Assembly: GCA_046563655.1 (NCBI GenBank)
Contig: CM102287.1
Location: 2,480,001 to 2,544,000, forward strand
Source of the DNA: Yuukianura sp. NJ FZ-2021
Taxonomy: Eukaryota
Direction: 5' to 3'
Length of the DNA stretch: 64,000 nucleotides
Shown here in pieces: positions 8,278 to 57,049 of this stretch. A program made the position numbers and the translations under genes. A model generated the notes under the pieces. The model was not told where the DNA came from. It saw nothing but the letters and a program-made list of their open reading frames with translations, and searched no databases. Position 1 is the first letter of the stretch. Every line of letters begins with the position of its first letter.

Positions 8278-8348
8278 GTGTCCATGTCACTATGTCCATG
8301 TCACGGTGTCCATGACACAATTTCCATGTCACGGTGTCCATGTCACGG
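8278..8348. repeat. 14-bp tandem repeat (GGTGTCCATGTCAC, about 5 copies) just downstream of the CARM1 stop
   Basis: Read directly from the sequence. Confidence 0.85.
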
Positions 8349-8359
8349 TTTTGGAGAAC

Positions 8360-12421: not shown

Positions 12422-14830
12422 ATGTCTGTCCGGATGAAGCGTCGGATCTGCCTGTCCATCATTTTAGTAGCGCTTGCGCTCTACTCCATCGTGTCACTCA
12501 TAAGAAAAGCGGAATTGTCTCAACCACTACCTCACAGGTATCAAAAGTACAAAAAATTTTGACATTTCAGGTCAAAGGTCAAACTGTTTCAAAATTTTAT
12601 AATTTTTTTACGTTTCAAATAATAGTGACTTCCGCTTTCCTTCGACTTTTCGTTCTCGTGACCTCCACGTCGTGGTTGGCTACTACCAAGGAAATGACCT
12701 GCCATGGCTGCATCACGAAAACCTAACACAAGGTCAAAGTTTAAATTTTCGAAAATTCCTTTTTTTCAAAATTTCAAAACTTTTTCAAAAAATAGTCTTT
12801 TTAACACTTACAGAAGTTCTGAACATGAATTCCTTTGACCCCGTCGCCAACGAGGGTAAAAACGGTGATGCAGTGCTGATTCCTCCCTTCCAAGCACCAA
12901 AGATGAACCGACTTTTCCAAGTGAACAGATACAATGTGATGGCCAGTGACAGAATTCCACTCAACAGGTCACTTCCGGATGTCAGAAGAAAAGAATGCTT
13001 GACCTTGACCTTTGACCCCGCTCTGCCCAACACCTCAGTCATCATAGTATTCCACAATGAAGCCTGGAGCACTCTTCTGCGCACAGTTCACTCCGTTATA
13101 AACAGATCTCCTGCGCATCTTCTTGAAGAGATCATCTTGGTAGACGATGCAAGTGATCGTGTATTTTTGAAATCTCCGCTTGATGACCATGTTGCATCTC
13201 TTGACATTCCAGTGAAAGTAATTCGATCTAAAAAGAGAATTGGGTTAATCAAGGCACGATTACTTGGAGCAAAGGAAGCCAAAGGTCAAGTACTTACTTT
13301 TCTGGACTCACATTGTGAGACTACGCAAGGTAGGAAAGTCAACTTCCAGGAAATCCTAAAAATAGTTAGTATTTTCAAAAATGTTGGAATTTTAAAATTT
13401 TGAACTTTTGAAATTTCGAAATTCAGGTTGGTTGGAACCTTTGTTGTCGCGTATCCATGAGAATCCGAAGGTCATCGCGAGTCCAGTGATTGACATCATC
13501 AATGACGAGACGTTTGCTTTCGTCAGGAGTTTTGAAATGCATCAAGGCGGGGTCAACTGGGCACTTCACTTTCGCTGGTTTACGCTTCCAGCGACTCTGA
13601 TTGCACGCAGAGGATTAAGTCCAACCAGACCATTCATGTAAACTAAACAAAAAAATACTAATTAATCAATGACTAATTAAAAATACTAATTAATGTCTAA
13701 TTAAAAGTTGATTAATTGTTTGACTTACTTGATTAGGACTCCAGTGATGGCCGGAGGGCTGTTTTCAATTGACAAACAATTTTTCTATGACCTCGGATCC
13801 TATGATGACCAAATGGAAATCTGGGGAGGAGAAAACATCGAACTTTCCTTCCGAGTGAGTAATTCAAATCTGGAACGTAAAAATGTCAAAGGTCAAAGGT
13901 CAAAGTTGAACAACTTCTGTTTTTAGGGCTGGATGTGTGGAGCCATTCTGGAAATCGTCCCGTGTTCACATGTAGGACATCTTTTTCGGTAAATCCTAAA
14001 AAACGAAAACGGCACATTGAAATCCAAAATCTTTTAAAATTGGAAATTCAAAATTTTGAAATTGGCTTTTCTGTAGAAAGTCCAGCCCTTACACGTTTCC
14101 TGGCGGAGTGTCCCAAACGCTGCACAAAAACTTGGCACGCGTCGCTCTCGTCTGGATGGACGAATGGAAAAACTTTTTCTTCAAAACACATCCGGGTAAC
14201 CCTGTTAATCAACAAAACTTTCAAAATTAAAATTTTTTAATTACTTCAATTTCATTTTGTTTTTCCTTTTGTATTGCAGAAGTTGGAGCACTGGCAGGAA
14301 ACCAATCCGTTCAGGAGCGACATGACCTCCGACATCGGCTGAAATGTCGCTCCTTTGACTGGTACCTCCGAACTGTGTGGCCCACCCACTTCTTTCCAGC
14401 CCACAACCGATTCGTCGGCAAAATCCGAAACAGAAAAACCGGAAAATGCCTGGAAACTCCGAAAGGGAAATCGCTGAGTCAGCCTTTCGGAGAAGCCAGA
14501 GTCCAGCAGTGTATCCTGGAAGTATTTCCTCCACAAGTATTTGTGATGAGTCCCACTGGATTCATTGCCACAGATGACTCCGTTTGTCTCGATGCTCCTC
14601 AACATGCTTCTCCTCTGGACACCACTGTTCGAATCATGGCTTGCAATACGCTGGAGAGACAGCGATGGAGGTACGACAAGAGAACGAAGCGATTACGACA
14701 CATCCCGAGTGGAAAGTGCCTTGACCTTCCGACGACGTCAAGTCACAAGAGTCTGACACTCAGATGGTGTGAAAGTGGAAGTAAGTCACAGGAATGGATT
14801 CTGGAAGAAATCGACTGGACATCACCGTGA
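12422..14830 (+). CDS. Polypeptide N-acetylgalactosaminyltransferase (GT27, GALNT/pgant family), multi-exon
   Basis: N-terminal TM segment, [29 protein letters not shown] (DxH), [20 protein letters not shown] and a C-terminal ricin-B lectin domain. Confidence 0.95.
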
Positions 14831-14988
14831 CAGTCACTGGACCATCACGGGACATCACCGTGACAGTCACTGGACCATCACGGGACATCACAGTGACGGT
14901 CACTGGACCATCACGGGACATCACAGTGACGGTCACTGGACCATCACGGGACATCACAGTGACGGTCACTGGACATCACCGTGACAGT
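14817..14988. repeat. 33-bp minisatellite (about 5 copies, three 11-bp subunits) overlapping the GALNT stop codon
   Basis: Unit GGACATCACCGTGACAGTCACTGGACCATCACG with an internal GTGAC-N-GTCAC inverted repeat. Confidence 0.95.
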
Positions 14989-15092: not shown

Positions 15093-17758
15093 TTAGGATG
15101 ACGAGAAGATTGACGGGAGGAACGACGTTTTGAGATCGTTGGGTTCCTGACCTTTGACCATGACCTTGAGTTTGATGATTGGCGGAGAGTGGTGTTCAAA
15201 AGAGTGAGTGTCTTCTGGTCTTTCTGCTGTGATGAAAATTGTTGAGTGTGGAGTCAGCTGTTGCATTTCATGGGCAAGTGCCAGCTGATTGATAACTCTT
15301 CGCTCAACTTCATGCTTGATTGATCTCGCACCATAATGGACATTGTACCCCTCAGAAAGTGCTTCCAGAACGTCCCGATCCCACTGAATTAGTCAATTAC
15401 TTCGATTACCGTCGAGTTATTAAAAATAGTGAGCTGATTTCTTACCTTGAGTTCAATGTTGTGCTTTTCCTTGGCCTTTCCAGCCCAGAATTGGAGTTCT
15501 TTTGTAACGAGTTCCAGGAGTTCTGATTTCGTAAATGGAAGGAAGTAGACGATTTCGTTGATCCGGCCAAGGAATTCGTCTCGCTTAAAATGTTTTTTCA
15601 GTATTTTCTGTACAACATTCTCCTTAAAGTGGGTTGAGATTGTGATTTTCTCTGACAGTTCTCGATCGTCTGAAAACGTAACAAAATCGTTAGAAATGAA
15701 TCTTTTGAGAAACTGAAATTCTTTACTTTGATAAAGAAACGTACCGATTTTTCCAGCGTATCTCTCCCGACTCACTCGTTCCGCTTCTTCTCTGAGCTGC
15801 AGTGCATGTTCAGCAATTTCTTCACTCGCCAAGTTAGAAGTCTGTCAACAATTTAGAAAAAGTTAAAACATTTTTAAACCGTACATTACAAAACAGTTAG
15901 GTCATTCCTTCCTTACCATCACAAAAATAGCTTCTTTACACTCAATCGTCTTCCCCTGTCCATCAGTCATTCGACCCTAGAATTCATTCAATTAATTATT
16001 CAAATTAATCACTTTTTTAATTTATAATATTCATATTTTATTATATTCACCTCATCAAAGAGTTGAAGCAAGACGGTAAGGACGTCAGTGTGAGCCTTTT
16101 CCACTTCATCAAACAGCACAACTGCATTTGGACACTTTTTGAGCTTCTTGGTCAGTTGACCTCCTTCTTCATGCCCGACGTATCCCGGAGGAGAACCAAT
16201 GAACCTTGCCACCTTTAGTTACAAAATTATAACTAATTAGTTTGATTAATTAATCAATTAGTTAATTGTAACATTTGATCTCACTTACAGAGTGTTTTTC
16301 CTGGTACTCTGACATGTCAATTCGGATGAATGCATTCTTGTTGTTCTTGTACAGGTAGTTGGCAATCTGTTTGGCTAACTCTGTCTTCCCTATGCCTGAG
16401 CTTCCAAGGAACAAAAACACAAGAGGATGACTATCATCTGTCCACCCATTCTCCTTCCGCCGAATCGCTGAAATTTCGCAAACATGGAATAACAGAGCAT
16501 TACAAGTTTGGAAATATTAAAAAATTGTGTGCTTACCGCTGGAAACTGTGGTGATGGCTCCCTCTTGTCCTACGATGTACTCTTTGATTCTTTGTTCGAG
16601 TGGAAAACGTCTTCTCTCCTCGGCAGCCTTCAACCTCTGCTGCTCTTCATACTGGTAAATCAGAAAAAATAATAAGTGCTTCGTATTGGAAACGTTTTGT
16701 GAAAAATGTGAATTCGGAAGAGCCGATACAAGAATATGGATATTTGGCTTACAACGGATGTGTGCTTTTTGATAAGTTCTTTGATTTCAGCGTTCCTGAC
16801 GTAATTGAGAGGTAAATGACCAGCATCATTGACTACAGTTGGAATCGCTCCGTGATCCAGCAGTGCTTTTACAATTTCCAGGTTATCGGCCAAGCAAGCG
16901 TAATGAAGAGCTGGAAAACAAGTTTTGAGTTACTTTTAGTAAAAGCCGAAAGTGAACAACACTTACCTGTGCATCCGTGGAAGTTGGCAGTTCGCAATCT
17001 GTCTGAAAACTCATCTTCCCTTTCATAATGCACTGAAAATTAAAAGAGTAAAACTGAATCTGAGAGTTTGAATCTTTAGTGGCAATCAATTCTAATCGCT
17101 TACCGTCAATTGGATTCATGTGCCTTGCTTTGGCCATTTGGTAGACAGTGGTAAATTCCTCCTTCAAATTCGGGTCAGCACCAGCTTCCAACAATGCCTT
17201 AACAACTTCTTCATTTCCGTTTACTGCAGCCACCATCAACGACGTCCATCCAAGCTGATGTCTCCCATTCACATCAACGTCACTCGCCTTCAGTAACGCA
17301 CGAACTTCAGTTACTCGATTCTTCTTTACAGCAGACAGCAACGCTTCAACTGCAAGTATAAAAATGATCGTTATTTTCTGAATTCTAATTTAGAAAACCT
17401 ATTTTCCTAAAGAAAATAGTTCCTCAACGTTACCATTTCGATTTGGAGTTGCATTGTAAGCTGTCTTCACACTGAAAATACCAATAGCCACCGGGACAAG
17501 CAAACTCCAAGGCAAAGTTCTTCTAAATTCCGAAGTATTCTGGTGACCTTGTGAATTCGAAGATGATGGACCAAGGTTAAATTCGTGATTATTAGCAAGT
17601 CTTTGTGAAAAATCTGGAATCCTTAATGTTTCTTCAGCAGTGGCTACAGAACAGGTACGAAATTGACTTTTGTCTCGTTGTACAAGTGATGCGGGTCTTC
17701 GTCTCCCATATGTCGCCAGAGATCTTAAGAAGAATCTGATATACGTAGCGACACTCAT
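15093..17758 (-). CDS. CLPB: Mitochondrial disaggregase CLPB/SKD3 (ankyrin repeats plus one AAA+ domain), multi-exon
   Basis: Basic N-terminal presequence, ankyrin repeats ([10 protein letters not shown]), Walker [68 protein letters not shown]; stop at 15095-15093. Confidence 0.95.
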
Positions 17759-17949
17759 GGCGGACGCATTGGCTCACCTGAGTTTCAGTTTACCAATTAT
17801 CCATTAGATCTTCTTACTAATCTGATGCAATTTGGTTGGGTTTTACGTCCTAATTTTATTCGCCTTGACTTTTTATGTGACTTTTTTCCTCTTTGTTTAC
17901 TTCAGACTTATCCGAGTTTTGGGTCAGCATGAATTTTGCACAACGAGAC

Positions 17950-18091
17950 ACTAAACCTCTGAAAACGTCAGACTGCCCTACTAAAACTCGGAAAACCTCC
18001 GACTGAGCTTACTAAAGCTCAGAAGTCATCAGAATGGGGTCACTAAGTCCCTGAAAAGATCAGGATCGTCACTCTAAAGCTCGGAAATTAT
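17950..18091. repeat. Degenerate 30-32-bp tandem repeat (about 4.5 copies) abutting the P-element left end
   Basis: Units begin at 17950, 17980, 18011, 18042 and about 18073 with a consensus like ACTAAAGCTCGGAAAA..TCAGACTG. Confidence 0.6.
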
Positions 18092-18790
18092 CAAGGTAAA
18101 TAGAATACTTATAGGTACGGTCCCTTAAAATTATTTTTTCAAAACCGAGTTGCTATGTGATTTTTTTCACTCCGAGTTCACTCATTTACAGTGTTGTTCA
18201 AAATTTTCATCATTTTAGTCTCAATACTTTCGCCACAAACTTAAAAATAGCTTAAAAACTCGGTTGAACCTGTATTTTCACTCGGAGTGACGTCACTGTG
18301 AGTGAAATTGTAAACAAATAAAGAATCGGTTTTGGTCGCTAAGGCATTTTTGCCGCCCCCTGGGAAATTATCTGAATCAGAAGGGCCTTACTAATCCCTG
18401 GAATTGTCAGAGTCAAAACATTGTACGCTAATGCTAAAGCTCTTTCAACCTCAATCGACGGGAATGTCAACAAAGATAATAATCTAACAACAACGTCGAA
18501 CGGATGTTGGATTACTTGGCAAAAATCGAACTTCGTCCGGGGGCGGCAAAAAAGCCCTAGCGACCAAAACCGATTTTTTGAAAAATAAACAACGAGAAAT
18601 ATCGTGACGTCATCCCGAGGGGGCGTGGCTAGCAAATCCAATTAAGTTCCATTGTGTTCCTCAAGTTTCTCTGTTTAATTACCGTCAATTAAGTTAATCA
18701 TAATAAGTTAGTTAATTCAGATAATCATTTAAGTTCAGTGGTGAGTTCAGTACGTCAGATTCCAAGTTTAGGTGTTGATCCCGAGTCATT

Positions 18791-21700
18791 ATGTCCAACT
18801 ACTGCGCATATCCTAAGTGTAACAACAATTCGAAGGCGTGTTCTGGATCTGGAGTCGTATTTCATCAATTCCCTACTAAGAAGATGCTTTGTAAGCGTTG
18901 GATTGACAAGTGTCACAGAGGATCTGACAAGTCGTTTCGGCCAATGAGTCACAGAATCTGTTCAGAACACTTTGCCGAAGCCGACTACGAGCGGGATCTG
19001 AAAGCCGAATTGCTTGGGCTTCCACCACGGAAAAAGCTGAAGTGTGACGCTGTGCCTCGTCCCGATCCAACTGCTAACACCACAAATGAACGAGACATAC
19101 GAATGAAACGGAAGGAGCATGCGCAGCTCATCAAAACGTTGCTAGAAGAGGAAATCCAGACAAGAGCGTTGCAATTAGGTACTGCATTCCATTTTGGAGT
19201 GTTTTTAATGAAATCAGGTTTAATTTTATTTCGATTTTGAAATTGTAGAGCAGCAGACAAGTGGCTCTGCTGAACCGGAAGATATGGAGGTGCAATCGGC
19301 AGTCTCTGATTTGGAACTTACGCAAAACTCTAGTACACAAACTCCTCGGATATTCACTGCGCATGCGTGTGTCCAAACAAAGAAATCCAAATACGGTAAA
19401 TTAAAAAAAACAACTTAAGATGACCGCTTTTGTTCAATGAACTTTTTCAATCCTTAGAACTCAAAATCCTCAAGCTTGAGAAAAAGCTAATCAACGTGAA
19501 ACACAAGTTGTTAATTAAGACGCTTACTGTCAATCGGCTGAAAGCACAACTACTGAAAAAAACTGGGAAGTCAGAAAAGCATCGAAAATTCGGAAAGAGT
19601 AAAATAATTGAGGTAAATTTAGTCTTTAGTATTTTCAAAAGTTTAGTGAAATGTTTTGTATAACATTTTTGATTAGGCAATGGCACTTCGGTCCGTAAGC
19701 TTGAAGGGATACGAAACAGCAAGGAAGATCATGAAAATGGATCTACCGGCTCCGAGGACTCTTCGTGCACATCTTCAAGGTTTTCAGTGCCTGCCAGGCG
19801 TCAGCCACGAAGTACTTGATGCGTTGAAAGAGAAATCATTGCACATGGACCCCCACGCCAAATTATGTGCTTTATCATTTGATGAAATGTCACTTGATTC
19901 AAGATACGTCTACGACAAAGGTCAAGATCAAATCTTCTCGGCCTCCCAAGCTCAAGTTGCGATGATTCGGGGAATATGTCAAAACTGGAAACAGCCAATC
20001 TATTACCAATTTGACACTCCAATGACCAGTGACATCTTGATGGACATCATTCAAAATGTCGAACAGTCTGGTTTCAAAGTAATGTCGGTGACGTCAGATT
20101 TTGGAGCTGGAAACCAGTCACTTTGGAAGAATTTGAACATCGACGAACATCACTCTTACTTCACAAATCCTGCAGACCGAAATCGTCGAATCCACGTTTT
20201 CGCAGACGTTCCTCACATGCTAAAACTAATTCGGAATCATTTACTTGATGACGGCTTCCAAATGGACTCAGGTCAGGTCGTCAATATGGAGATCTTGGAA
20301 GAAATGCTGTCCAGGAATGGAGATGAGAAGAAACTGTGTCCCAATTTCACCTCAAAAATTCTAGAAGTGACACGTTCCGAGCGAATGAGGGTAAGCAAAT
20401 TAAATACGTTAAATTAATTAGTTTAACACTGCGTTAGAACTCTATAGTTCCAACTTTGGCCGCTAGATGGCGCCACCGTCGACCCCTCGGGATCTCTTTA
20501 GTTCCAACTTTGGCCGCTAGATGGCGCCACCGTCGACCCCTCGGGATCTCTTTAGTTCCAACTTTGGCCGCTAGATGGCGCCACCGTCGACCCCTCGGGA
20601 TCTTTTTAGTTCCAACTTTGGCCGCTAGATGGCGCCACCGTCGTCACATCAAATTGATTATTGTACCTAATCCAAGTGTCTTATTACTTATTACAGGTGC
20701 GTCCGGCAGCGCAGCTTTTATCAAACCGCGTATCCAAATTGGCAGAACTAGTTTTTCCGGACAAGCCTGACATTTCAAAGTTTTTCAAAGTTCTCAACGA
20801 TGGCTTCGATGTACTGAATTCCAAGTTTCCAGTGGACAACGACAACAAAATCAAATCTGCATACGGCATGGACTTGGAACAGCAGAACGAAGCATTGCTT
20901 AACCTAGAGCGTCTCATACGGCAGTCTCGTTCATTCACAAAAGGAAAAAATGTTGCCAAGAAAAAGTCGCCGAAGAAGGCCCTGCTTCCATGTCAAAAAG
21001 GTTTCTTGTTATCCATCAGTTCCTACAAGTTGTTACTTGAAGACCTCAAGAAAGAGAATGTGACCTACCTGCTTGGAATTCGGGTCACTCAGGATGTACT
21101 AGAATCATTTTTCTCAAGTGTAAGGTCGTATGGAGGGCCAAATACATCACCTGGACCAATTGAATTCCGCTACAGAGTCAGACTTCTTATCCTTGGGTCA
21201 AAGGTCAGAAATCCTAATGGAACCAATTGTCTGGCTGATGATGCGAACTACTTGGCCAGCAACATAATGCTGAAGCTAGATCGCCCATTCAGACTGCCCA
21301 AACGAAAACCTCTACATAAGGAAACTGGAGACCCGACATACAGCCACATAACTTCAACCTCAACCAGCTTTGATGTGGATGCAGAAGCGCTGAAATACTT
21401 GGCTGGATATTTGGCGTGGAAGTTAAAGCGCCAAGGCTTCGGTACTTATGGTACTCCATCGTCAACGTTTACAATTCCTGATTCCACAACAAGTTGGATT
21501 ATGCACCTGTCGAGAGGAGGATTGCTGATTCCCAATGATCACATCTCCAATGTCGTCGAGAAATGTGAGACTGTATTCCTGAGGCTTATGTCGGAACAAA
21601 TAATGCTCCCGAATGTCACCAAGAATTTCGTCACAACCGTGCTCCGGGACTTTCCACAATTTGAAACAAAAATCGTCGAGCTATTTGTGGCTACCCGGGT

Positions 21701-21791
21701 TCGGATTCGGCTAAAAGAGCTGAACATCAACGCTAAGAGCAAATTCAACGTTAAAAAGGCTAAGCAATTTGTAAAAGCCGCACCAAAGTAG
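18791..21791 (+). CDS. THAP-domain P-element transposase (THAP9-like), 5 exons, about 832 aa
   Basis: Exons 18791-19178, 19249-19395, 19458-19612, 19677-20390 and 20697-21791 total 2499 nt in frame. C2CH THAP domain (CAYPKC..FP..W..ICSEHF..DAVP), coiled coil, FDEM, TSDFG, ADVPHMLKLIRN, QDVLESFFS. Confidence 0.93.
20445..20643 (+). promoter_or_regulatory. 54-bp tandem array (3.7 copies) in transposase intron 4, each unit with a CTCF-like motif
   Basis: Unit TAGTTCCAACTTTGGCCGCTAGATGGCGCCACCGTCGACCCCTCGGGATCTCTT; cores TGGCCGCTAGATGGCGCCA at 20457, 20511, 20565 and 20619 match the CTCF consensus. Binding is inferred. Confidence 0.75.
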
Positions 21792-22255
21792 CTCACTGTT
21801 TCAAAAGTTTACATGTAAAATAAATTTGTTTAAAAATATTCGGCAATTTAAGCAATTAATTCTAAATTTTTAAATCAGAAGACACTTTTCATAATGCTTA
21901 TAATGAGCCACGCCCATCCACTTCACTCGGGATGACGTCACAATTTAAAATATTAAATTAAATTAACGTGGCAACCACGTTTTGAAAAAACAATTCTCAA
22001 CAACCGTACCTATACGTATTCTATTTACCTTGACTTCGTCCGCCATTTTCCAGGTACATCTCTGGACGATCGTAGCCTAGACAACTCAAAACGTCAAAAT
22101 ATCGCTTTCGTTCCTTATGTTGACGTGCTTTAATTTTGCACTTTACAACTTTTTTCTTTTCAGCGACCATCGATCAGCCAGCCCTCTTATCATCATCGAG
22201 AGAACATCGTTAATCGCTGCATTGAACGAGCTCTACCAACGGAAGTAAAGCCATA

Positions 22256-25200
22256 ATGGAGACTTCGAGGAAGTCCAAGGGTGACGGTCCCAAAAAGAGA
22301 AAAACGAGGGAGAAATCCGGACAAGGAGGAGAAACGAATGCGAAGGAAAGGAAATCCAAGGTTCCGAATCCTGTACGTCCCTCCGTCGTCATGAGTGCGA
22401 CGGAGCTGAACCAGACCAGCAGTCAAGATCAACTGGAACTGAGGAAATCCGTGTCGGAAGTGGAGATACGATCATCACCGTCAGCAGAAGTCTTAGCCCA
22501 GCAGGACATACAACAGACTCAAAGAATCAAGCGAATGTCAAGGTCACTCGGACCGACACAACGAAATACTGCGATAGAATCATGCGTTTTCCCACTGCGA
22601 GGTTATCACTCAGAACCGAATCTTCTGACCTTGACGGAGCCCGAGTTCCAAGATGTCCGGATACCAAGGAAAGGTCAAGTGGGGAGGTCAAAGACAATGG
22701 AAGACGTTGTCCTGTCGTCATTGTGCTACCCATCTCTTGTCACTGAGGCTATCTACCCGGGAGACACTGATCGTACTTATGTCGTTAGCGAAAGTGTTCG
22801 GAATGCCTGGGAAGCAGTTGCTCAGCAGGAGATCAATCGGTTTTCGTTTTATGATGCTCTCTTTGCTGGTGGTTTTGTCGTTGACAGGTAAAATAAGAAC
22901 TCAAACTTGCATTTCTCCTTGATTAATCTAAACTTATGTTTCAATTAGTCTGGAAGTTCCTGCTCGTCTGGACGACATTTCATATCTCATCGAAGGAGAC
23001 GTGTCTGTGTATCGTGATAAGCCACTTGACTATGCCAGAATGGTTTTCAAGTCAAAGACTGTTTTCACTGGAAACTTGACCAATGGACACTTCAGTGGAC
23101 CTGGAAGGTACATCTGGTTGGATGGCACGATTTATCAGGTAATCGATTTATTTTCGATTTTTCTCCTTTGAATTTCGATTTTTCATGAACTTTTCTAACT
23201 TTTGGTTCTTTTTGGTGTCTTTTCAGGGTGATTTTCAAGATGGTCTGATGCATGGCGAAGGCGTTCTGCTCCTTCCAGACGGATGTTTTTTTGAAGGAGA
23301 GTTCAAGAATGGGGAACGTACTGGCTGGGGAATTTACACCACTCCGACTGGACTCATGTACGCTGGAGAATGGCTGAAAGGGGTTCCGAATGGCAATGGC
23401 AAAGTTTGGTACAACCCGAACGTGGAAGACAGCGACTACTACGATGGTCAGTGGGATAAAGGAACCATGCATGGCTTTGGCACTCGCCAGTACATCAACG
23501 GATCCAGGTACATTGGCAACTTTCACCGTGGAACACGCAAAGGTCAAGGCACAATGATCTGGTTAGCAGAAAGACAAGTAAGACGTTCTCAACTTAATTT
23601 TTAAGGAGAGTTAATCGATTAACTTAAATTGATTTGATTTCAGGTGTATAAAGGCGAATGGGCAGAGGGAGAACCGAATGGTTTTGGGGAACACGTTTGG
23701 TATTTCCCGCGCAGCGCCACTTGTCCCTACCCTCAGCGAAATGTCTACAAGGTCAGTTTTGAAATTCAAAATTTTGGTAACTTTTTGAACTTTGAAAAAA
23801 TGTTGAAATTTTGAAAATTCCAGGGAGATTTTGTTAATGGTATGCGTCACGGGATTGGTCGAATGATTTACGCCTGTGGCAGCATCTACGACGGAAAGTG
23901 GCATGATGGAGTCAAACACGGCAAAGGAATTTTCATCAATCCGGCAGGGGAAGTTCTTTTTGCAATTTTCCGACAAGGATCCATTTCTGGAGGATCGGAT
24001 ATCGTAAGTTTCAGAAATATTTTTAGCACTTTGAAAATTTCTGATTTCTGAAACCTCTTTTTTGAAAATTTTTTGAAAACTCTGATTTGTGTTTGTTTTT
24101 CTTATTTTAGCCTCTGCATGTTCCCACTTACGCCTGCAAGTTCCGGTCACTCGTGACCGTGTTGCAACAGCGTCTTCATGTGACTGACCCCACGGTGGCC
24201 CAACTAGAGGAAGAGTACTTGTCAGAAACCGTGACACGGTTCCTCACCCGTGTGCGAAGTCTGTACAAAAGGGCAGGGTACTTGGGGGAATGGTGGGGCA
24301 ACCAAGGGCATTTCCCCCAGTGGATGAAGAAATCAACACAGACTAAGCATCACCTTCAACATCGACACACAAAGGACCCTATTCTGGAGTCCATCCAGAG
24401 CCAAATCTACGAATCTGATGAGCAGCACGCATCATGGACTCATGGCCACAAACCACACTTTGGGTCACCCGACCACGTCAACCCCGTCACACGATTTGGA
24501 CTTTGGTTGTTGCTCAAAGACTGTCCAGGAGTGCTGTCGGACATTACACTAGCTGAACTTGACAGCATTTGGACCACGATTCCCTCAATTTCCTTCCAAA
24601 CACGACATCATCCGTTCGAACCCGTTCAACTTTGGCAGGTTACTAACTTTTTCACTTTTTTAAACTTTTTTTTTTGAATGTTTGAGACTTTCCTGAAACT
24701 TTGTTGTTGTTTTTTTTTTTTTTTGAAACTTTGATTTTTTTTTTAGTTTCTGCAATGTCTGGTCGTTGTGGCTTCCATGATTTACATCGAGATTCCAAAA
24801 CGAAACTACCAGTACGAGATGAACGTTGAGGAAGATGAGGAAGCGTTTGAGGTGGAAGCGGAACATAAAGTGGACCATTTCGAAGAAGAAGAAGAGACAG
24901 AAGTTGACGACCAAATCATGGTTCCACCGCCACCGTCTCCCGCCGGATCATTTTCTTCTACAAAAAACAGCAAGACATCCGACAGTGGTGCTGGAAGTGC
25001 CAAAAACAATCAGCGCAAGAAAAGCTCCAGAAAGTCCAAAATGTCAAAAACTGACAGCAAAACGAGAAAATCCCAGGCGGAGAAACGCCCCACTGTGACT
25101 GCTGGTGGGGCTAAGAAAGGCCGTGCGTCGTCCAAGGCAAGGAAATCACGAAATTCGTCACCAAAGCAGTCCTTGGACACGAAAATTCGGAAAGACGAAG

Positions 25201-26662
25201 CTTCTGCGTCGACGCAGACGGAAATGAGATACGGAGTTCCTAAAGAAGCTGAAGAAGCACAAACCGATTTGAAGTACGACGGAGATGAGGTTGTTCGCGA
25301 TTTCATGCTCAGCGAAGCCTTCGAACTTTTCCTCACCGATTTTCTACTTCCATGTCTCGAGAGACGACCAGGTCAGCCAGCAAATCTAAAAACTTTACGT
25401 GCATTTTTGAATTTTTTCTTTAATTTAAAAATTTTCAAATTTTTGAAACTGAACTGTGTTTAATTTTTTTAGGAAAGCATCTTCCGCAAGCACCGAATCC
25501 ACTTCCGTCGCTATCTGATCTCTACGCTGCCTTCAACGTCGTTTCTCCTTACAAAGATGTAATTTCAGCCCGTGAATTTTTGATCAGTACGCTGCCACAT
25601 CGTCAAATTCCAGATCCAACGTACATCTATTGGACTCGAAGCAAAAATGTGATTACCCCTGACATTGACATGCCACAATTCTTCAAACACTTCGCAGAAC
25701 CAGACACTCCAGCAGCAACGGACTTGCTGGACTATGACTTTCTCAGTGAAAAGCTGAGCAACGCTGACATGCTGATTGAAGACATCAAAACAGAAGTTTT
25801 CGGATCAGAGCAGACGCAAAACGAAAAAGAAGAAAAAAGACACAGTTCAATCAAAATTTTCGGATCGGGCAATATCGTTTTTGGTGACGACATTCCTGCT
25901 TCATCGTCTGCTACTTCACAACATGCAGATGAAGGTCAAGGTACCAAAAACTAAAAACAGTTAACTTTTTTGAATCTGAACTTTGACCTTGGATTATGCA
26001 AAACTGCAATTTTTTGAATGATTTACAGGCGACGCTGCCAAGCCAAAGCGCCTGCCGAGTGAGAGTGACTTTGATTTACCTTTGGCCGAATCGGACTTAA
26101 CAGCAGTTCCATTTTTATGGGAAACTGATCCCGTTTGCAAACAAGTCCCGTGAGAACACTAACAAAATTACTTTTTCAATTCAAAACCACAATTTTTCGG
26201 GAAATTTTTGCGAAAAATAATTGTAAATGGCGTAAAACTTCGTAAAAAGTGGAAAGGAAGTTTTCTTTTTTTTTTAACTTTTCAATATTTTTACAGGAAA
26301 AGCACCAAAGTTTTTGACAACATTGAGCTGTCGGATGTGCTAAAGATTTTGCGTCAATTCTATCCGAGAACGTGCGGCGACCGGAGTACGATGATCAACT
26401 TGGAGTTCAACGTAAGTGTTTCTGAGTCACAGTTTTATAAAAATGGTGCCAATTTATATTTGTAATAAGTGTGTGTTTGTAGTTGACCTTTGGGGACTGG
26501 GTTTGGCTAACCCTGATCATCAATAAACTGAGCACAGATCGTGCATTTTGTGCTTGGATGAAGAATGAGTCTGGACTGGAACACAAACCTGGAAGATGTC
26601 GACAATCCAGCAGTCTTCCAGAAGCGAAGGAGCCAGAAGCATACACTGTGACTAAAACCTAA
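22256..26662 (+). CDS. MORN-repeat protein, radial spoke head 10 homolog B-like, multi-exon
   Basis: Many MORN repeats (YAGEWLKGVPNGNG, YDGQWDKGTMHGFG, YKGEWAEGEPNGFG, YPQRNVYKGDFVNGMRHGIG); C-terminal NLEFN|LTF segment resembles RSPH10B. The 3' end is less certain. Confidence 0.75.
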
Positions 26663-27055
26663 AAAGCAGAAGATTTTGCAGTTTTGCAAATCCTAATTCA
26701 TCCCGAGTTTCATAATAACTGGTAAATATTTGAAAAATAATAATTTTTCTCCACTTTTTCTCTTCCTTTTTCTGCACGTTTCTTTCTATTTTTATGCTTT
26801 TTATGGAATTTTCACACGCTTTTGAGTGGTTTGCCTTGTGTTGCTGAGGAAAGTTGTTGTGATTTGATATTTATCTGGCTTGGCTTTAACCTTGGACTTG
26901 ACTACTTGTGTTATGCTTTGCTTTGCTTTTTAGACTCAATGCACTGCCTACTTGTTAGTATAGTGTCAATAATTTCCGAGTTTCTTCCTAATTTCAGTTT
27001 TCACTCCAAATTGCTCTAATTTCATAATTTTCAATTCAGAATTTGCAGTTGTAAG

Positions 27056-28198
27056 ATGAGTACAAAGTTGTTGATCTCTACTGTGTTCGAAGGGTGTTAT
27101 GGGCTGTTCGGCGTAGACGATGACAGTGCCCTTATTCTTAGAATGACTCAAATTGGACTAATTTACACCGTAGTTGTTGGGATTTACGGTCTTTGGCAAG
27201 CAGCTCCCTACGGAAAGCATTCCAGCGGTACTTCGTGGGCCTATGGACCACCAATCAACGCCAAGCTAGCTTGGATTGTAAGAAACAAACACAAAGAAAC
27301 ATAATTTTTAAAAATTCCAGATTATTGGCAAAAAAGTTGAGATTTTCATGGTTTTGTTTCAATTTTTAGATTCAAGAATCTCCAGCAAGCATTGTACCTG
27401 TGCTGCTAATGCTCCAGTCGAAGTGCATCCATGTTGGAAATCCACCAAATCTAATTCTCACTGTCCTGTTCATGGCTCACTACATCCAAAGGTACTGGGG
27501 ATTTAAATTAATTGAGTAGTTGATTAACTAATTAACTAAAACTAATTTTTAACAGGAGCTTCATCTACCCATTTCGGATGTCGTCAAGAGCCAAACCAGT
27601 TCCGCTGTTGGTTTTGGTGAGCGCCTTCACCTTCTGCCTGTTCAATGGCCTCTTTCAAACGCATTTTCTGCTCAACGTCCATTTGGTCAACGGAAGTTCA
27701 CCGTTTTTTCTAGGAGGTTAGACAAATGACCTTGAAATTGGAAAGAATTTCCTTAATTCCAATCGTATTTGTGATTCTTACAGGAGTTGCACTGTTTATA
27801 ACTGGAATGGCGATTAACATCCACCATGATGGGATCCTGATGTCACTTCGCAAAGGAACAGAAAAGTCAACAGCTTCCGAAGGAAAATCTAGCTACAAGA
27901 TTCCACGCGGATTTCTATTTGAGTACATCAGTGGAGCCAACTACGCTGGAGAAATACTGGAGTGGTGGGGATTAGGAATCGCTTCAGCTGGATTTCCACA
28001 GGTAACAATTACTAATTAAGCTAACATTTACAAAATAGCAAAGTTTCTACTCTTCTCTTTTTCATTCAGCTCCTCTTTGCAATGTTTTCTACCGTGTTTC
28101 TCGGTTTGAGAGCTTGGCATGGACACAAATTCTATCAAAAGACGTTCGGAAAGTCATACCCTGCCTCACGGAAAGCAATAATTCCCTTTATCTTATAA
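27056..28198 (+). CDS. 3-oxo-5-alpha-steroid 4-dehydrogenase (SRD5A1/2-like), multi-exon
   Basis: APYGKH, AKLAWI|IQESPA, HYIQRSFIYP, INIHHDGILMSLRK, YKIPRGFLFEYISGANYAGEILEWWG, YPASRKAIIPFIL*. Confidence 0.92.
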
Positions 28199-28453
28199 AA
28201 ATCAGGAATACTGGCAGTATTTCGTAACTCTTAAGCTTAGTGTTGCCCAATTGGAAGTAAAGGCGTGAAATGGACGAATTCCCAAGTACTTTAGATTTCT
28301 TTTACTGACGGTTTTCGTAAATTGCTTATGCGTAGACTCTAACAACAGTACAAGATAAAGCCAATGTCAGTAACAGTTTATGAGCTGACTTTTCTAATTA
28401 GTAATTGCTGGCTCATGTGACTACATACTTGGAGACGAGGGTGAACTGGATGT

Positions 28454-28737
28454 TTACTTCTTGAGTAGTTGATGACGGAGGAGCAGAAAGGGAACGGCAA
28501 ATCCAGAACCCATGAACAGCCCCATCTTTAAGGCCAAGGCCCATCGATTCTTAATTGAGAATGGAAGATTCTGGAACATTAAACAGTCAATTAGTTAAAT
28601 CAATTAAAAGTAAACTAATCATTGCTTAATTAACTTACGTTTCCGGGAACTCCACCATCGTCGTGATGATCCCCACTTCGCCGAATGGCAGAGGTCATCA
28701 AGTTCCGAATTCCAACACGACTCAGGATCATCTTCAT
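28454..28737 (-). CDS. COX7C: Cytochrome c oxidase subunit 7C, 2 coding exons (absent from the ORF track)
   Basis: [71 protein letters not shown]; exons 28737-28639 and 28570-28454. Confidence 0.92.
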
Positions 28738-29275
28738 GTCTGTAACTATTTAAAGACAATTCTCAGTTATATTTACAGACCGAAAGCTAATTAGTAATCG
28801 AAAACGTTAAACACAGAGAAATTAATCGATCGATCACCTTGTTTCACAATTTTAAATCCAAATTCCAAAAATAATTTTTTTGAGTGTGTCTGGTTATTCT
28901 AAAAGTCACCCCGGTGGAATCTGTCACCCGAATTTTACAATTATCAGCTATGGGCATTGCATTTTTTTTAATTAGTTTTTTATTTTAATTAGTACAATAA
29001 TTGGTTAATTTCTTTAGTTCCTTTAATTTTTAGTTTAAAAATTTAGAAAATTTAATTATTATTAAGTTTCATGTTACCTTGACCCAAAGGTCAACAATTT
29101 TAAGATTAAACAAAGCACTTTTAAACTTGGTAGCTATATTGCATTATGTATATCTATTTTAGAACAAGCAAGCTCCTGATTTCGTTGTTTTTTTCAACTG
29201 GCGATTTATTATTTCCAAAATTTTGCAAGTTTTTGAAAAGAGTTGTAGAATCGTTCAAGGTTTTTGGAAAACGAA

Positions 29276-44094: not shown

Positions 44095-45369
44095 TTACAA
44101 ACATCCGCAGACGCAAACAGAAGATTCTGCTGCGTAGAAATCGTCTTTGAATTGGCATCTTTTTCCTCTGCCAATATTTCCGCCGTACTCCGGTTCCGTG
44201 TTGACATCCATGCATCTTCTACTGCACTCTTGGTTGGATTCGCATGTTGCATCTTCAAAAGTGTGCACGTAGGATTGCTAACACAAAAATTTTGATAACT
44301 TTTGAATATTTTAATTTTAAAGTTTTTTTGTTACGGGCATTCCGTTTGGAACCAGTCTTGTACTGTCTTCCGGCTTCCAGTCTTCACGGCTTCCGAAGAG
44401 AAACAGCTGATTCGGCTTCCAGTCTTCCGACTTCCGGCTTCCAAGGATTCTCTTGTCTTCACGGCTTCCGACCTCCGGCTTCCAGAGAATGTTTTGTCTT
44501 CACGGCTTCCGACCTCCGGCTTCCAGCGAATGTTTCGTCTTCACGGCTTCCGACCTCCGGCTTCCAGGGAATTTCTTGTCTTCCAGTCTTCCGGCCTCCG
44601 GCTTCCAAAGATTCTCTTGTCTTCACGGCTTCCGACCTCCGGCTTCCGGAGAATGTTTTGTCTTCCAAGGCTTCCAGGGGATTTTTGTATTGCAGTCTTC
44701 CGGCTTCCGGAGGATATTTTGTCTTCCGGCCTCCGGCTTCCAGAGAATCTTTTGTCTTCCAGGCTTCCGGCTTCCGGCTTCCAAAGAATGTTTTGTCTTC
44801 CGGGCTTCCGTCTTCCGGCTTCCAAAGAATCTTTTGTCTTCCAAGCTTCCGGCCTCCGGCTTCCAAATAATATTTTGTCTTCCAGTCTTCCAGCCTCCGA
44901 CTTCCACAGATTCTTTTGTCTTCCAGGCTTCCAGCCTCCGGCTTCCAAAGAATATTTGGTCTTCCGGGCTTCCGTCTTCAATACTTCCGGAAGTCGGAAG
45001 AATGAAGCCGGAAGACGGCTTCATTTGAAGAATCTTCCGGAAGACAGTACAAGACTGGTTTGGACAAGGTTGGCAAAGACAAGTTCCATCTCCGATGCAT
45101 TTGTAGTTTCTGCCCATGCAAACAGCGGAACACAAGTTGTACTTTTCTCCCATCATCATTTCAAATCTGCAATCTTGGCCTAAAATCTAAAAACGTGTCA
45201 ACTTTTTTGAAATTTTGAAATTTTATGAAACCTTGAGCAAAAAGTGATTTGAGTTTACGAATTGGCAAGCTAAACCATTGATTCTTTTATTTTATGGACA
45301 ATAAATTACCTGTGTAGCAGTTATCAGGACTAACTTTGTAATAATTAAAAAATTAGTTTTGAATTTCAT
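44095..45369 (-). pseudogene. Small secreted Cys-rich, two-domain defensin-like gene interrupted by a transposon in exon 2
   Basis: Removing 44351-45059 and one TSD copy restores MKFKTNFLIITKLVLITATQ|ILGQDCRFEMMMGEKYNLCSAVCMGRNYKCIGDGTCLCQPCPNGMP|QSYVHTFEDATCESNQECSRRCMDVNTEPEYGGNIGRGKRCQFKDDFYAAESSVCVCGCL* with GT-AG introns in phase. Confidence 0.65.
44351..45059. mobile_element. 709-bp non-autonomous DNA transposon filled with roughly 41-bp CTTCCGG-based tandem repeats
   Basis: Perfect 23-bp TIRs ACCAGTCTTGTACTGTCTTCCGG (44351-44373 and 45037-45059); 5-bp TSD TTGGA (44346-44350 and 45060-45064). Confidence 0.88.
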
Positions 45370-48360: not shown

Positions 48361-49348
48361 ATTTTACATTTTCAAGCAGTCAAGTACATTATAGACCATC
48401 ATAACTTCAATAGCCTCGATAGAATGCTGCCAAATCCCAAAATTGACCGAATTATCAATAGACAAAAACAAGATTTTCATTTTGGAAATTCTGAAAAACT
48501 GGAAACTTTGAACTTGTTGCATCTGACAGTGAGATTGACGCACATTTCATGAACCTCCTCTACGCAAATGGTGACTGCGTGACGTTGGTGTGACAAGGAC
48601 AAGTTATTTTTGCATTTTGCACGTTTCGTGAAGTGTAGTTTCGTGATGACTACATGTAACTGGTTACAGTGACAGCATCCTGGGTTTCCACCCTTATTGT
48701 GTCATCACCTTTAAAAATAAAATTTCAACTTTAATACAAAAGTGAAAAATCTTTACTTTTAGAGTGACAATGAAGACGGAATTAGTTTTTAAAGGAGATT
48801 AAGTGACGAGTAGCAGTTAGAGAAGATGAAGATGCGGATGAGGGATTGTCCTTTGGAACACCCTTCAACGTCAATCTCCCACAACATGCGTCTACTTTTT
48901 AAAAAGTGACAACTGAAATGGGACAAAGAAGTTGATTGTGTCAATGGTTAAGACCATAAACACCCACTTACAACTTGTACTTGTCAATGGAGAGGTCAAA
49001 GGTCAGGAGTACACACACTTTGTCAAAACACTAAACTATTTTAAAATGACCCCACACCTATATTTAGAACTTTATAAATCTGTCAAAATGTGGACATTAG
49101 GCTATAGAGTCTCACTGTATACTCAAAATCTTACTAAAAAGTGAGGTCAACGACCTTGACCAATTTCTTGCAACATTTCCGTTAGAAAGTACACTTTTTA
49201 AATGCCTTGAATACCACTGGGAACACTTTTTGTAAATTCAACTTCTTGTTTTCACACATTCACCAGCTTTTGAGTCAAAAGTTTTGCGTTGAAAAACGTT
49301 CAGTCTGTTTTAGGTGGGAGATCTTTGTTGCTTGTGCGTCTGCTTGAA

Positions 49349-49819
49349 ATGGGTTTGTCAGGAGGAGTTGGTGGTGGTCGTTGGATGGCGTTGGTCATGG
49401 TGGCTCTCATTGGTGGATTCTGGATTGGTGGGGCTGGAGCCACCGACGCTGCCCCACCAGGGAACAATTCGTCGTCGCCACTTCAATCGCGTGCTGGGCG
49501 AGAGGAGTCAGAGTGGTGCAAGGCATTTGCGCGAGACGAAACCTGCTTCGCGGACTTTTTAGAGGAAATACAGAAAGAGAAGTTGAACAAGTACGATGAC
49601 GAATTGAAACCCGGCAAACGTCGCGAGTTCATCGTGGAACAAAGAAAATGCTGCGCTGACAAAGGAGAGGAAGACTGCGTACTTGTACTGGGAGCGTTTT
49701 ATCTTGTGATGACGTCAGACTACGAAGCTTCATCGAAGCACTGCGCAGCAGGCGCGAAGAATGCTGGATTCGTTCCAGCGATGCTGGCAGCAACTATTTT
49801 TCTTACGCTCATTTCCTAA
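49349..49819 (+). CDS. Putative GPI-anchored six-Cys protein, family member 2
   Basis: Signal peptide, RAGR, C-x8-C-x34-CC-x7-C-x21-C, HCAAG and hydrophobic tail; close paralogue of 57050-57505. Confidence 0.75.
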   Translation: MGLSGGVGGGRWMALVMVALIGGFWIGGAGATDAAPPGNNSSSPLQSRAGREESEWCKAFARDETCFADFLEEIQKEKLNKYDDELKPGKRREFIVEQRKCCADKGEEDCVLVLGAFYLVMTSDYEASSKHCAAGAKNAGFVPAMLAATIFLTLIS

Positions 49820-56607: not shown

Positions 56608-57049
56608 CCTATTCTTAGAACTTCATAAATCTTTTTCAAAAATTGAAGAATTAGAATCCGTAGTGTCGTTGTCCAAAAATCCACTGGTCACAGTCTTACC
56701 AAAAAGTGAGGTCAATGACCTTGACCAATTTCTTGCAACTTTCTCCTAAAAAAAAAGTTTTTACAATGTCTTGACGACACGGGGAACACTTTGAGTAAAA
56801 TCAACATCTTGTTTTCACACACTCAGCAACGTTTGAGTTGACCTTGGTTGTTCAGTCGCAGTCAGTCGCTGGAAGTTGAGCCGACAGGAGTCCACACTCA
56901 ATTGTTCCGTCAAGTTCATCGGAAACAGAGGTCAGTCATCCCAAGTAAGACAAAACTTTAATTAACTATGGTTTAAAGTTAATTCAACTTTAACGGAACT
57001 CTGGTCTGTTTTAGGTGGAAGATCTTTGTTGCTTGTGCGTCTGCTTGAA

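Follow-up and report, generated by a model that had tools for sequence, protein, structure and literature searches.

A P-superfamily transposon with an intronic array of candidate CTCF-type sites in a springtail-like hexapod

Organisation of the locus

The window analysed here, a stretch of 64,000 nucleotides from a springtail-like hexapod, contains two host genes that are transcribed away from each other, an ankyrin-repeat gene on the minus strand and a MORN-repeat gene on the plus strand, and the divergent promoter region of about 0.7 kb between them accommodates two insertions, an autonomous transposon of about 3.5 kb and a miniature relative of 271 bp (Table 1). The first-pass annotation had likewise placed the element between two divergent genes. 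The 10-mer ACTTCGTCCG flanks the 3.5-kb element on both sides, and in two contigs representing the empty site (X3 record 16 and X4 record 22) position 18529 is joined to position 22033 with a single copy of ACTTCGTCCG. Given these empty-site contigs with their single 10-mer, the element is of recent insertion, and this insertion is still polymorphic. The X4 contigs leave most of the transposase body uncovered, a lack of cover that is not counted as evidence.

The 3.5-kb element has no terminal inverted repeats, its two ends agreeing at 6 of the 20 outermost nucleotides, and its outermost 160 nt contain a single inverted match, a subterminal repeat of 19 nt. What look like long inverted ends of the element proved to be split between two insertions, the 271-bp miniature and the 3.5-kb element, each with a separate duplication. 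The inverted pair of 74 nt concerned (18091-18164 and 21960-22033) could be taken for the terminal repeat of one element, an assignment which the empty-site contigs, showing two independent insertions, do not allow. The miniature relative has its own duplication of 9-10 nt (18083-18092 and 18363-18372) and shares sequence with the 3.5-kb element at both ends, over about 60 nt at one and about 45 nt at the other. Nesting of the P element within the miniature was also considered and rejected, as the inner inverted repeats are bordered on their outer sides by 8 nt that differ and the miniature has the same inner motif.

Table 1. Features of the 3.5-kb element, its intronic array and the surrounding host locus (positions in the window)
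Feature	Position	Strand	Basis or remark
Ankyrin-repeat host gene, first two coding exons	16883..17758	-	transcribed away from element
Miniature relative, 271 bp, separate, opposite orientation	18092..18362		without array; absent from empty-site contigs
Left target-site duplication copy, 9-10 nt	18530..18539		3.5-kb element
Autonomous element, about 3.5 kb	18539..22032	+	missing in its entirety from empty-site contigs
Left subterminal inverted repeat, 19 nt	18601..18619	+	18/19 complementary to partner; 62 nt from left end
Transposase exon 1 (THAP domain)	18791..19178	+	Pfam
Transposase exon 2	19249..19395	+	spliced frame
Transposase exon 3	19458..19612	+	spliced frame
Transposase exon 4 (TNP-like RNase H N-terminal part)	19677..20390	+	E=4e-39 to 6p5a
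Transposase intron 4, 306 nt, GTAAGC..TTACAG, contains array	20391..20696	+	spliced frame
54-bp minisatellite, 3.8 units	20440..20643	+	58% G+C vs 26% G+C in remaining intron
Candidate CTCF-type two-part site 1 (TAGTTCC, 5 nt, TGG, 15-nt core)	20445..20475	+	matrix 24.08 bits
Candidate CTCF-type two-part site 2	20499..20529	+	19-mer match, matrix score, printed unit
Candidate CTCF-type two-part site 3	20553..20583	+	19-mer match, matrix score, printed unit
Candidate CTCF-type two-part site 4	20607..20637	+	19-mer match, matrix score, printed unit
Transposase exon 5 including stop codon	20697..21791	+	E=6.6e-17 to 6p5a
Right subterminal inverted repeat	21926..21944	-	88 nt from right end
Right target-site duplication copy, 9-10 nt	22033..22042		3.5-kb element
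MORN-repeat host gene, start	22256..23604	+	transcribed away from element

The transposase gene

The element encodes its transposase in five exons, which when spliced give a frame of 832 codons with no internal stop. Residues 6-90, within exon 1, form a THAP domain (PF05485, E=1.4e-15), and Pfam recognises further downstream an RNase H-like core (PF21787, E=1.7e-24, and PF21789). The solved Drosophila P transposase 6p5a is matched at E=4e-39 and 6.6e-17, with exon 5 aligned to its residues 430-562. Compared with this structure the acidic residues of the FDEM, SDxG and QDxxExFF motifs, which we take to be the catalytic triad, are all kept. The GTP-binding insertion domain (PF21788) is carried by relatives and went unreported by Pfam in the exon pieces, which were scanned separately; full-length relatives align to the transposase from end to end. 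By its domains and its uninterrupted frame the gene is an intact P-superfamily transposase, and the initial description of such a gene, with an array in intron 4, is upheld. The nearest proteins in a large collection are 37-55% identical to it and no near-identical copy of the element was found among the proteins of that collection, while metagenomes yielded one related locus only (L001, 28% identity). Intron 4, in which the array lies, extends over 306 nt as against 70, 62 and 64 nt for the remaining introns, and were it retained the frame would end after 476 codons, 8 codons into the intron.

The 54-bp array and its CTCF-type units

Tandem Repeats Finder delimits the array as a repeat of period 54 at 20440-20643, with 3.8 copies, 98% matches, no indels and a score of 394. 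A core 19-mer recurs on the plus strand at 20457, 20511, 20565 and 20619, that is, at a spacing of exactly 54 nt, and found no match in 100 shuffles even when 3 mismatches were allowed. In each of the four units it is preceded by TAGTTCC and 5 nt; AGTTCC itself is constant in all four, and positions immediately 5' of it vary. Units 2 and 3 have the same sequence, from which units 1 and 4 each depart at 1 position; unit 4 is in addition truncated after 42 nt. The near-identity of the units, their single orientation and the TAGTTCC block 5 nt ahead of the core, as originally noted, are thus all borne out by the program and the printed units. The array might be thought to encode a protein repeat, being open in some frames, but the exon frame stops 8 codons into intron 4. 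Three other minisatellites (at least 3 copies, score at least 100) are present in the window, so that a tandem array alone is ordinary here; no CTCF-matrix match of at least 10 bits was found in any of these three. No Rfam family was found in the whole window.

The resemblance of the units to CTCF sites was gauged with the 18-nt Drosophila matrix (Holohan 2007, Table S2). Every unit attains 24.08 of the 27.72 bits possible, a score with an exact tail probability of about 1.6e-9 per position and, for a whole 54-bp unit with both strands counted, of 1.7e-7, and the match of the core to the CTCF consensus claimed from inspection is in this way given a figure. None of 200 simulated windows reached 24.08 bits, and the second-ranked site among the 128,000 positions scored in the window stands at 16.35 bits; an average true site drawn from the same matrix is expected at 17.2 +/- 4.8 bits. 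The strong features common to fly and vertebrate CTCF sites, namely CC at positions 1-2, AG at 6-7 and GGC at 10-12 (Holohan 2007), are all found in the array core.

The upstream block CTTTAGTTCC agrees with the vertebrate CTGCAGTTCC-like consensus at 8 of 10 positions, the final six exactly, and lies 5 nt ahead of a TGG, or 8 nt ahead of the 15-nt core. The linker of CTCF sites is variously counted as 5 bp, as 2-7 bp or as the 7-8 bp crossed by ZF8 in the literature portions available to us, and a two-part motif with a 5-bp linker and a TGG-like element ahead of a 15-bp core is described in the consulted portion of PMC12885311. Counted as 9 + 5 + 20 nt, the layout of the unit yields the 34-bp two-part motif of Schmidt 2012 (PMC3368268, in part). 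An arrangement of AGTTCC, 5 nt and TGG that resembles the vertebrate one is present, in line with the CTCF-like spacing which the first-pass annotation had ascribed to the block. At Drosophila CTCF peaks the upstream block is not enriched, according to the portion of PMC12885311 that cites Tonelli 2025. Taken by their sequence, the units are very probably CTCF-type sites.

One question then is whether such sites could be used by this host. Heger 2013 examined 19 arthropod genomes, among which springtails are not named, and found CTCF in every one; in protostomes the architectural role of CTCF is reported to be limited, and in insects and other protostomes no CTCF-anchored loops were seen (bioRxiv 10.64898/2026.10.19.760054). 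In the literature portions consulted we found no arthropod P-type or other DNA transposon with an array of CTCF sites and nothing connecting CTCF to springtails, neither of which is proof of absence; likewise, the consulted parts of PMC10013865 and PMC7854359 do not connect transposons to CTCF sites. On the strength of the motif, occupation of the units by CTCF in vivo seems somewhat better than an even bet.

Distribution of the array among copies

Other copies of the element, compared by means of contigs, give a divided picture. Two sequence versions of the element reach into the array on either side, and at identical coordinates: version A is identical to the window sequence (X1 records 4 and 5), and version B, with 48 and 6 differences (X3 records 17 and 19), is 3%-diverged and keeps the array in the same place. 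The four long internal-deletion derivatives seen in the contigs (joints 19364|21436, 19378|21444, 19624|21495 and 19859|21735) have all lost it. The comparison of the array across copies that had been suggested at the outset finds it kept in the diverged version, and missing from the deletion derivatives and the miniature relative. Since these derivatives and the abundant miniature lack the array, mobility does not depend on it, nor is it the part that has spread most.

The unit itself is not confined to the element in the window. Five X1 contigs carry a variant with TT changed to AG at 20497-8, and one contig departs from the array mid-unit, with a loose end at 20590, which together point to further unit copies in other contexts, and the 54-bp unit may be a captured repeat. 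A 22-nt piece of the unit had 0 matches in metagenome, prokaryote genome and viral contigs. Summed contig depth, which is not copy number and serves as a hint only, amounts to 2955 in the array bin in X1, against 105 and 312 beside the array, and is higher still over the miniature element, at 22,000-29,000 against 150-590.

Comparison with known systems

The Drosophila P element, in which the target-site duplication is 8 nt, has in common with the present element a THAP domain and RNase H-like core, insertion into promoter regions and a target-site duplication as such. The present element differs in the length of this duplication (9-10 nt), in the lack of terminal inverted repeats in favour of 19-nt subterminal repeats only, in its four introns and in its CTCF-type array. 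The carriage of insulator sites by transposons is in itself already known, from gypsy with Su(Hw) in flies and from the CTCF retroelements of mammals. In the gypsy insulator of Drosophila, an LTR retrotransposon holds twelve degenerate Su(Hw) sites grouped in its 5' untranslated region (see also PMC2493044). The array described here is similar in that sites suited to a multi-zinc-finger insulator protein are packed closely together in the transcribed region of a mobile element, but in our case the carrier is a DNA transposon and the candidate sites are of CTCF type, arranged in four tandem units within an intron.

Similarly, mammalian retroelements of the SINE B2 kind spread CTCF sites, which often act as chromatin and transcriptional insulators (Schmidt 2012, PMC3368268, in part), and have a full two-part motif, core plus second block, within a transposable element. 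These are single sites in short non-autonomous mammalian retroposons, whereas here a four-site tandem array resides in an autonomous hexapod DNA transposon, the commonest derivative of which is without it. The mouse L1 Tf monomers, as described in the available portion of PMC11602158, are likewise tandem units in a transposon with a strong factor site in each, a YY1 site that overlaps the reverse of our core; however, they are about 200 bp long, lie at the 5' end and serve as promoter, whereas the units here measure 54 bp, are intronic and fit CTCF better than YY1.

Possible functions of the array

The best explanation, to which we assign a probability of about one half, is that a transposon-borne array of CTCF-type sites was amplified within a P element, its most likely mode of working being occupation by host CTCF. 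We infer that this animal possesses a CTCF of conserved specificity. After its recent insertion into the divergent promoter region, the 3.5-kb element would expose to this protein a G+C-rich 54-bp segment, amplified to four units in the A+T-rich last intron, each unit offering a 15-nt core suited to zinc fingers 3-7, the TGG, the 5-nt linker and an AGTTCC block like those that fingers 9-11 contact in vertebrates. Host CTCF would fill the four sites side by side in the same orientation at 54-nt spacing, so that nucleosomes would be kept off about 200 bp of the element, and the occupied array could then act mid-element as a barrier or enhancer blocker. In principle, transposase expression would become less dependent on the insertion site, and cross-talk with host promoters, the targets of P-type elements, would be limited. 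That an insulating role of this kind benefits the element is, judged from the sequence, a good deal more doubtful than that the sites are bound. The notion, put forward in the first-pass annotation, of a mobile boundary cassette that could shield the element or rewire host chromatin is weakened by the lack of enrichment of the upstream block at Drosophila CTCF sites (PMC12885311, in part), by the limited architectural role of CTCF in protostomes (bioRxiv 10.64898/2026.10.19.760054) and by the four of four deletion derivatives and the miniature that do without the array.

The chief alternative, on the whole unlikely yet deserving of serious consideration, is that the array is a neutral minisatellite, in which a captured G+C-rich fragment with a chance CTCF-type site was amplified by replication slippage, any binding of CTCF being incidental and without gain. 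The three other minisatellites within the same 64 kb, the contrast between an array of 58% G+C and an intron of 26% G+C, the near-identical units, as expected after a recent expansion, the deletion derivatives and miniature relative without the array, and the unit variants and divergent flank elsewhere in the same sample are all consistent with this. A random 54-bp unit, however, would reach such a score with a probability of about 1.7e-7, the upstream block at the right distance not yet counted, the other three arrays have no CTCF match of at least 10 bits, and the 3%-diverged version retains the array in the same place. A role in splicing appears very improbable: the array would lengthen or structure intron 4, or bind a protein, and thereby cause retention of the intron and production of a THAP-containing truncated transposition repressor of 476 aa. 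The Drosophila P element sets a precedent, its transposition being repressed by a truncated protein, and both the length of intron 4 (306 nt against 62-70 nt in the other three) and the stop 8 codons into the retained intron, past the THAP and N-terminal RNase H parts, accord with it; the unit nevertheless bears no resemblance to any known splicing silencer, and its good fit to a DNA-binding matrix would be left unexplained. We attach the least credence of all to the idea that the units are bound by the THAP transposase which the element itself encodes, and serve as a transposition enhancer or titrating sink. P-type transposases usually bind beside the subterminal repeat region, and the second half of the unit (CGACCCCTCGGGAT) is at 13 of 14 positions complementary to sequence adjoining the left subterminal inverted repeat, but about five such 13/14 pairs are expected by chance in the 5.5-kb self-comparison, the GTGACGTCA half of the subterminal repeat falls outside the shared part, and the array is missing from derivatives that transposed.

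On the opposite strand the units could be read as YY1/Pho sites, forming an internal promoter or enhancer, or a Polycomb-response-like module, in the manner of the mouse L1 Tf monomers. The reverse-strand core GGCGCCATCTAG, with a full GCCAT, is identical at 10 of 12 positions to the functional L1 Tf YY1 site GTCGCCATCTTG, and transposons are known to make use of tandem promoter monomers that contain YY1 sites (both from the available part of PMC11602158); moreover, fragments carrying Polycomb-response elements cause homing of Drosophila P elements (PMC3261919, in part). Set against this, an A here replaces the highly conserved T after GCCATCT, a change that lowers binding (PMC11602158, in part), and the match covers 12 nt, compared by site and not by matrix, as against the 18-nt matrix plus upstream block in favour of CTCF, so that we regard this possibility as improbable. 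Returning to CTCF as the ligand, the array could also be in dual use, as a barrier keeping the transposase gene active at whatever site the element inserts and as a tether guiding the transposition complex to CTCF-occupied host promoters, with which the bound CTCF and its partners would pair. Such a tether would be the natural counterpart of the homing of P elements caused by regulatory fragments placed in P vectors, and on present sequence arguments it is a long shot, if less so than the YY1/Pho reading.

Implications

Even if the array were only a captured minisatellite, the locus would still provide a clean polymorphic and apparently active P-type element devoid of terminal inverted repeats, together with an abundant miniature partner. 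Should the combined barrier and tether be real, it would follow that the two-part CTCF motif, with its upstream block for fingers 9-11, goes back to the ancestor of the hexapods and has since disappeared from flies; DNA transposons would then be a source of new CTCF sites outside mammals. The AGTTCC block raises the question of whether fingers 9-11 already read the upstream motif before vertebrates arose. If CTCF binds the array, this would be a third independent case of transposon-borne insulator sites, carried by a transposon of cut-and-paste type in an early-branching hexapod, and the array would offer a compact natural cassette of four sites for probing what CTCF does in protostomes, a group in which its architectural function is a matter of dispute.

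Architecture of the array and its host gene

The fourth intron of a P-superfamily transposase gene contains a single minisatellite of period 54 (20440-20643; 3.8 copies, 98% matches and no indels by Tandem Repeats Finder), which occupies 204 of the 306 nt and has a G+C content of 58% as against 26% in the remainder of the intron. Units 2 and 3 are identical, units 1 and 4 each carry one difference and the last ends after 42 nt. The 19-mer singled out by the first-pass annotation recurs four times on the forward strand at a spacing of 54 nt, while 100 shuffles of the window gave no match to it even at up to 3 mismatches, and in all units TAGTTCC and five further bases precede the core. The annotation's description of the array, as near-identical 54-bp units in one orientation, each with TAGTTCC-N5 ahead of the core, is thereby confirmed.

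Its placement of the array inside an intact transposase also holds. The spliced frame comprises 832 codons with no internal stop, all four introns (70, 62, 64 and 306 nt) have GT-AG boundaries, and a full-length relative, P0002 (849 aa), aligns in one piece with residues 1-829 at 42% identity; the best named relatives, from a springtail, show ~41%. A springtail or near relative as source is likewise suggested by a conserved exon of the arginine methyltransferase CARM1, with identities of 82% and 79% to two Orchesella springtails as against 74-78% to most insects listed. Compared with the solved Drosophila P transposase structure 6p5a, the protein retains the acidic residues of FDEM, SDxG and QDxxExFF, which we take to be the catalytic triad.

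Tandem repetition by itself is ordinary in the window, since three other minisatellites are present (at least 3 copies, score at least 100). In that at 44416-44974 several frames lack stops, on both strands, and long repetitive ORFs result. Depletion of CpG is slight, with an observed/expected ratio of 0.86 for the whole window and 1.13 for the array. The core cytosines at positions 2 and 12 both lie within CpG; a passage of Yang 2023 (PMC10484683) ties these two positions to methylation-sensitive CTCF binding.

Coordinates of the insertions, the transposase exons and the other minisatellites
Feature	Position	Details
Miniature element	18092-18362	271 bp; flanked by GGAAATTAT(C); own 9-10-nt target duplication
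Transposase element	18539-22032	3.5 kb; flanked by ACTTCGTCC(G); 9-10-nt duplication
Left subterminal inverted repeat	18601-18619	19 nt, 62 nt from end
Right subterminal inverted repeat	21926-21944	19 nt, 88 nt from end
Exon 1	18791-19178	THAP domain (Pfam)
Exon 2	19249-19395	
Exon 3	19458-19612	
Exon 4	19677-20390	TNP-like RNase H part (Pfam); 6p5a match, E=4e-39
Exon 5	20697-21791	TNP-like RNase H part (Pfam); 6p5a match, E=6.6e-17
Minisatellite	8278-8349	at least 3 copies, score at least 100
Minisatellite	14817-14979	33 bp x 5; at end of GalNAc-transferase-like gene
Minisatellite	44416-44974	41/123-bp; at least 3 copies, score at least 100

Match of the units to the CTCF motif

The Drosophila count matrix of Holohan 2007 (PMC1904468, Table S2), built on 30 sites used in vivo, gives each of the four units 24.08 bits out of a maximum of 27.72, the runner-up position in the window reaching 16.35 bits. 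None of 200 simulated windows attained the array score (top 21.9), the exact tail probability of which is 1.6e-9 per position and 1.7e-7 per 54-bp unit with both strands counted; for true sites sampled from this matrix the expected score is 17.2 +/- 4.8 bits. The other three minisatellites contain no CTCF-matrix match of 10 bits or more. The core has CC at 1-2, AG at 6-7 and GGC at 10-12, all of which the cited part of Holohan 2007 gives for both fly and vertebrate sites. The Drosophila matrix scoring proposed in the first-pass annotation bears out its claim that the core fits the CTCF consensus, and by matrix each unit is a predicted CTCF-type site.

The upstream block resembles that of vertebrate sites. 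PMC12885311, in the section cited, describes a vertebrate upstream consensus like CTGCAGTTCC and a TGG-like element ahead of the 15-bp core, with a linker that measures 5 bp in the complex of known structure but in practice ranges over 2-7 bp; excerpts of Schmidt 2012 (PMC3368268) combine a 9-bp second motif and a 20-bp core motif into a two-part motif of 33/34 bp, and of Yang 2023 have finger 8 spanning 7-8 bp of minor groove. The block of the unit, CTTTAGTTCC, agrees with the consensus at 8 of 10 positions, the last six exactly, and is followed by five bases, TGG and the core, a layout of 9 + 5 + 20 = 34 nt provided that the 20-mer begins at TGG, as we assumed. From base composition, AGTTCC would occur unaltered at a single given distance with a chance of ~2e-4. 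Weighing against a role for the block, the same section of PMC12885311 reports no enrichment of the upstream block at Drosophila CTCF peaks and a lesser conservation of fingers 9-11 in flies.

Two insertions in a divergent promoter region

Two contigs of public runs, record 16 of run X3 (11.3 kb) and record 22 of X4 (3.1 kb), are continuous across 17000-18082, 18363-18529 and 22033-23000. They therefore reveal two separate insertions in the window, with joints 18082/18363 and 18529/22033, at each of which ten letters fit either side. These two joints show that the 74-nt inverted pair (18091-18164 and 21960-22033) does not delimit one 3.9-kb element as its terminal repeat, as it seems to at first sight. 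Runs X1-X3 derive from one sample, possibly the source of the assembly, and X4 from another study under another organism label; the flanks of the empty-site contigs differ by ~3% from the window. Both insertions are missing from these contigs and are therefore polymorphic, an indication of recent activity. At the empty site the start codons of an ankyrin-repeat gene (reverse strand, ~17758) and a MORN-repeat gene (forward strand, 22256) lie ~0.7 kb apart, and hence both insertions fell into a short divergent promoter region, in agreement with the earlier statement that the element separates two divergent genes.

The 3.5-kb element has dissimilar ends (6 agreements in the first 20 nt). No terminal inverted repeats were found at 18539-18560 and 22013-22032, and within the outermost 160 nt only the 19-nt subterminal repeat, with its GACGTC centre, recurs in inverted form; the element is thus of the P superfamily by its protein, not by terminal inverted repeats. 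Their absence, together with a 9-10-nt duplication, is unusual among the P superfamily. The miniature element, in opposite orientation, has ends of ~60 nt and ~45 nt in common with the larger one and looks like its miniature relative. Its summed contig depth is around a hundredfold that of the flanks (in X1, 22,000-29,000 versus 150-590 beside it), although such depth is not a copy number; the miniature element is likely the abundant non-autonomous partner of the family. A fused palindromic version of the subterminal repeat occurs within it at 18276-18307.

Elsewhere in the window, an apparently intact Pao/BEL-type LTR retrotransposon (50756-56080) has one open frame of 1774 codons with Pao peptidase, reverse transcriptase and integrase zinc-binding domains. 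It is flanked by two similar open frames of ~180 codons (49274-49819 and 56966-57505), hydrophobic at start and end and matching no Pfam family; these probably represent a host gene and its tandem paralogue.

The array in other copies

Records 4 and 5 of X1, contigs without differences from the window, break off or set in within the first and last unit, at 20481 and 20614, and contigs of another version, ~3% divergent (records 17 and 19 of X3), do so at the same coordinates; an array at this position is therefore shared by at least two versions of the element. The most frequent unit junction in the sample is not that of the window (TT to AG at 20497-8, 5 X1 contigs), one contig exits the array mid-unit into unrelated sequence (loose end 20590), and the summed contig depth of the array bin far exceeds that of neighbouring bins, so that units occur also in other arrays or contexts. 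Forms with long internal deletions, of at least four different joints (19364/21436, 19378/21444, 19624/21495 and 19859/21735) are also present, two of which carry a few filler letters, as after abortive gap repair. All four of these deletions take out the array.

Possible functions of the array

According to the relevant parts of Holohan 2007 and of bioRxiv 10.64898/2026.10.19.760054, the specificity of fingers 3-7 is common to flies and vertebrates, and Heger 2013 (PMC4208683), as cited, records CTCF in 19 of 19 arthropod genomes analysed. The simplest reading of the motif is that every unit is a site at which host CTCF can bind. With a common orientation and 54 nt apart, the four sites could then hold four adjacent CTCF molecules and exclude a nucleosome, and such a block in a promoter-landing transposon might serve as an enhancer blocker or a barrier. 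A true boundary function is less likely, because the architectural role of protostome CTCF is reported in the bioRxiv text to be limited.

It is well possible that the array is a neutral captured minisatellite. Read from the reverse strand, the core could instead constitute an array of YY1 sites: it agrees at 10 of 12 positions, GCCAT included, with the functional YY1 site of the mouse L1 Tf monomer, but lacks a conserved T of that site (PMC11602158, in the passage cited). Retention of intron 4 would stop the frame after 476 codons, and the array might aid such retention, yielding a truncated THAP protein. The unit might also be connected with the transposase that the element itself encodes, its second half, CGACCCCTCGGGAT (20480-20493 and repeats), being complementary at 13 of 14 positions to 18612-18625 beside the left subterminal repeat, although a self-comparison of such size can yield a match of this kind by chance; the complementarity may be fortuitous or may reflect where the unit came from. 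Binding by CTCF remains the reading we favour as the simplest, and the first-pass interpretation is partly supported, in its statements on the sequence, the mobile multi-site boundary cassette being putative.

The gypsy element is known to bear a cluster of sites for the insulator protein Su(Hw). Mammalian retroelements, in the part of Schmidt 2012 cited, bear the full two-part CTCF motif; in both, sites for insulator proteins are transposon-borne, as the predicted CTCF sites of the array would be. In the literature searched (listings, abstracts and passages) we found no arthropod DNA transposon, P-type or otherwise, described as carrying an array of CTCF sites. The interest is limited in that the functional role is a proposal from sequence, successful derivatives of the family do without the array and transposon-carried CTCF sites are already established. 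Nevertheless, the units agree strikingly with the CTCF motif, and the putative cassette would be easy to test.
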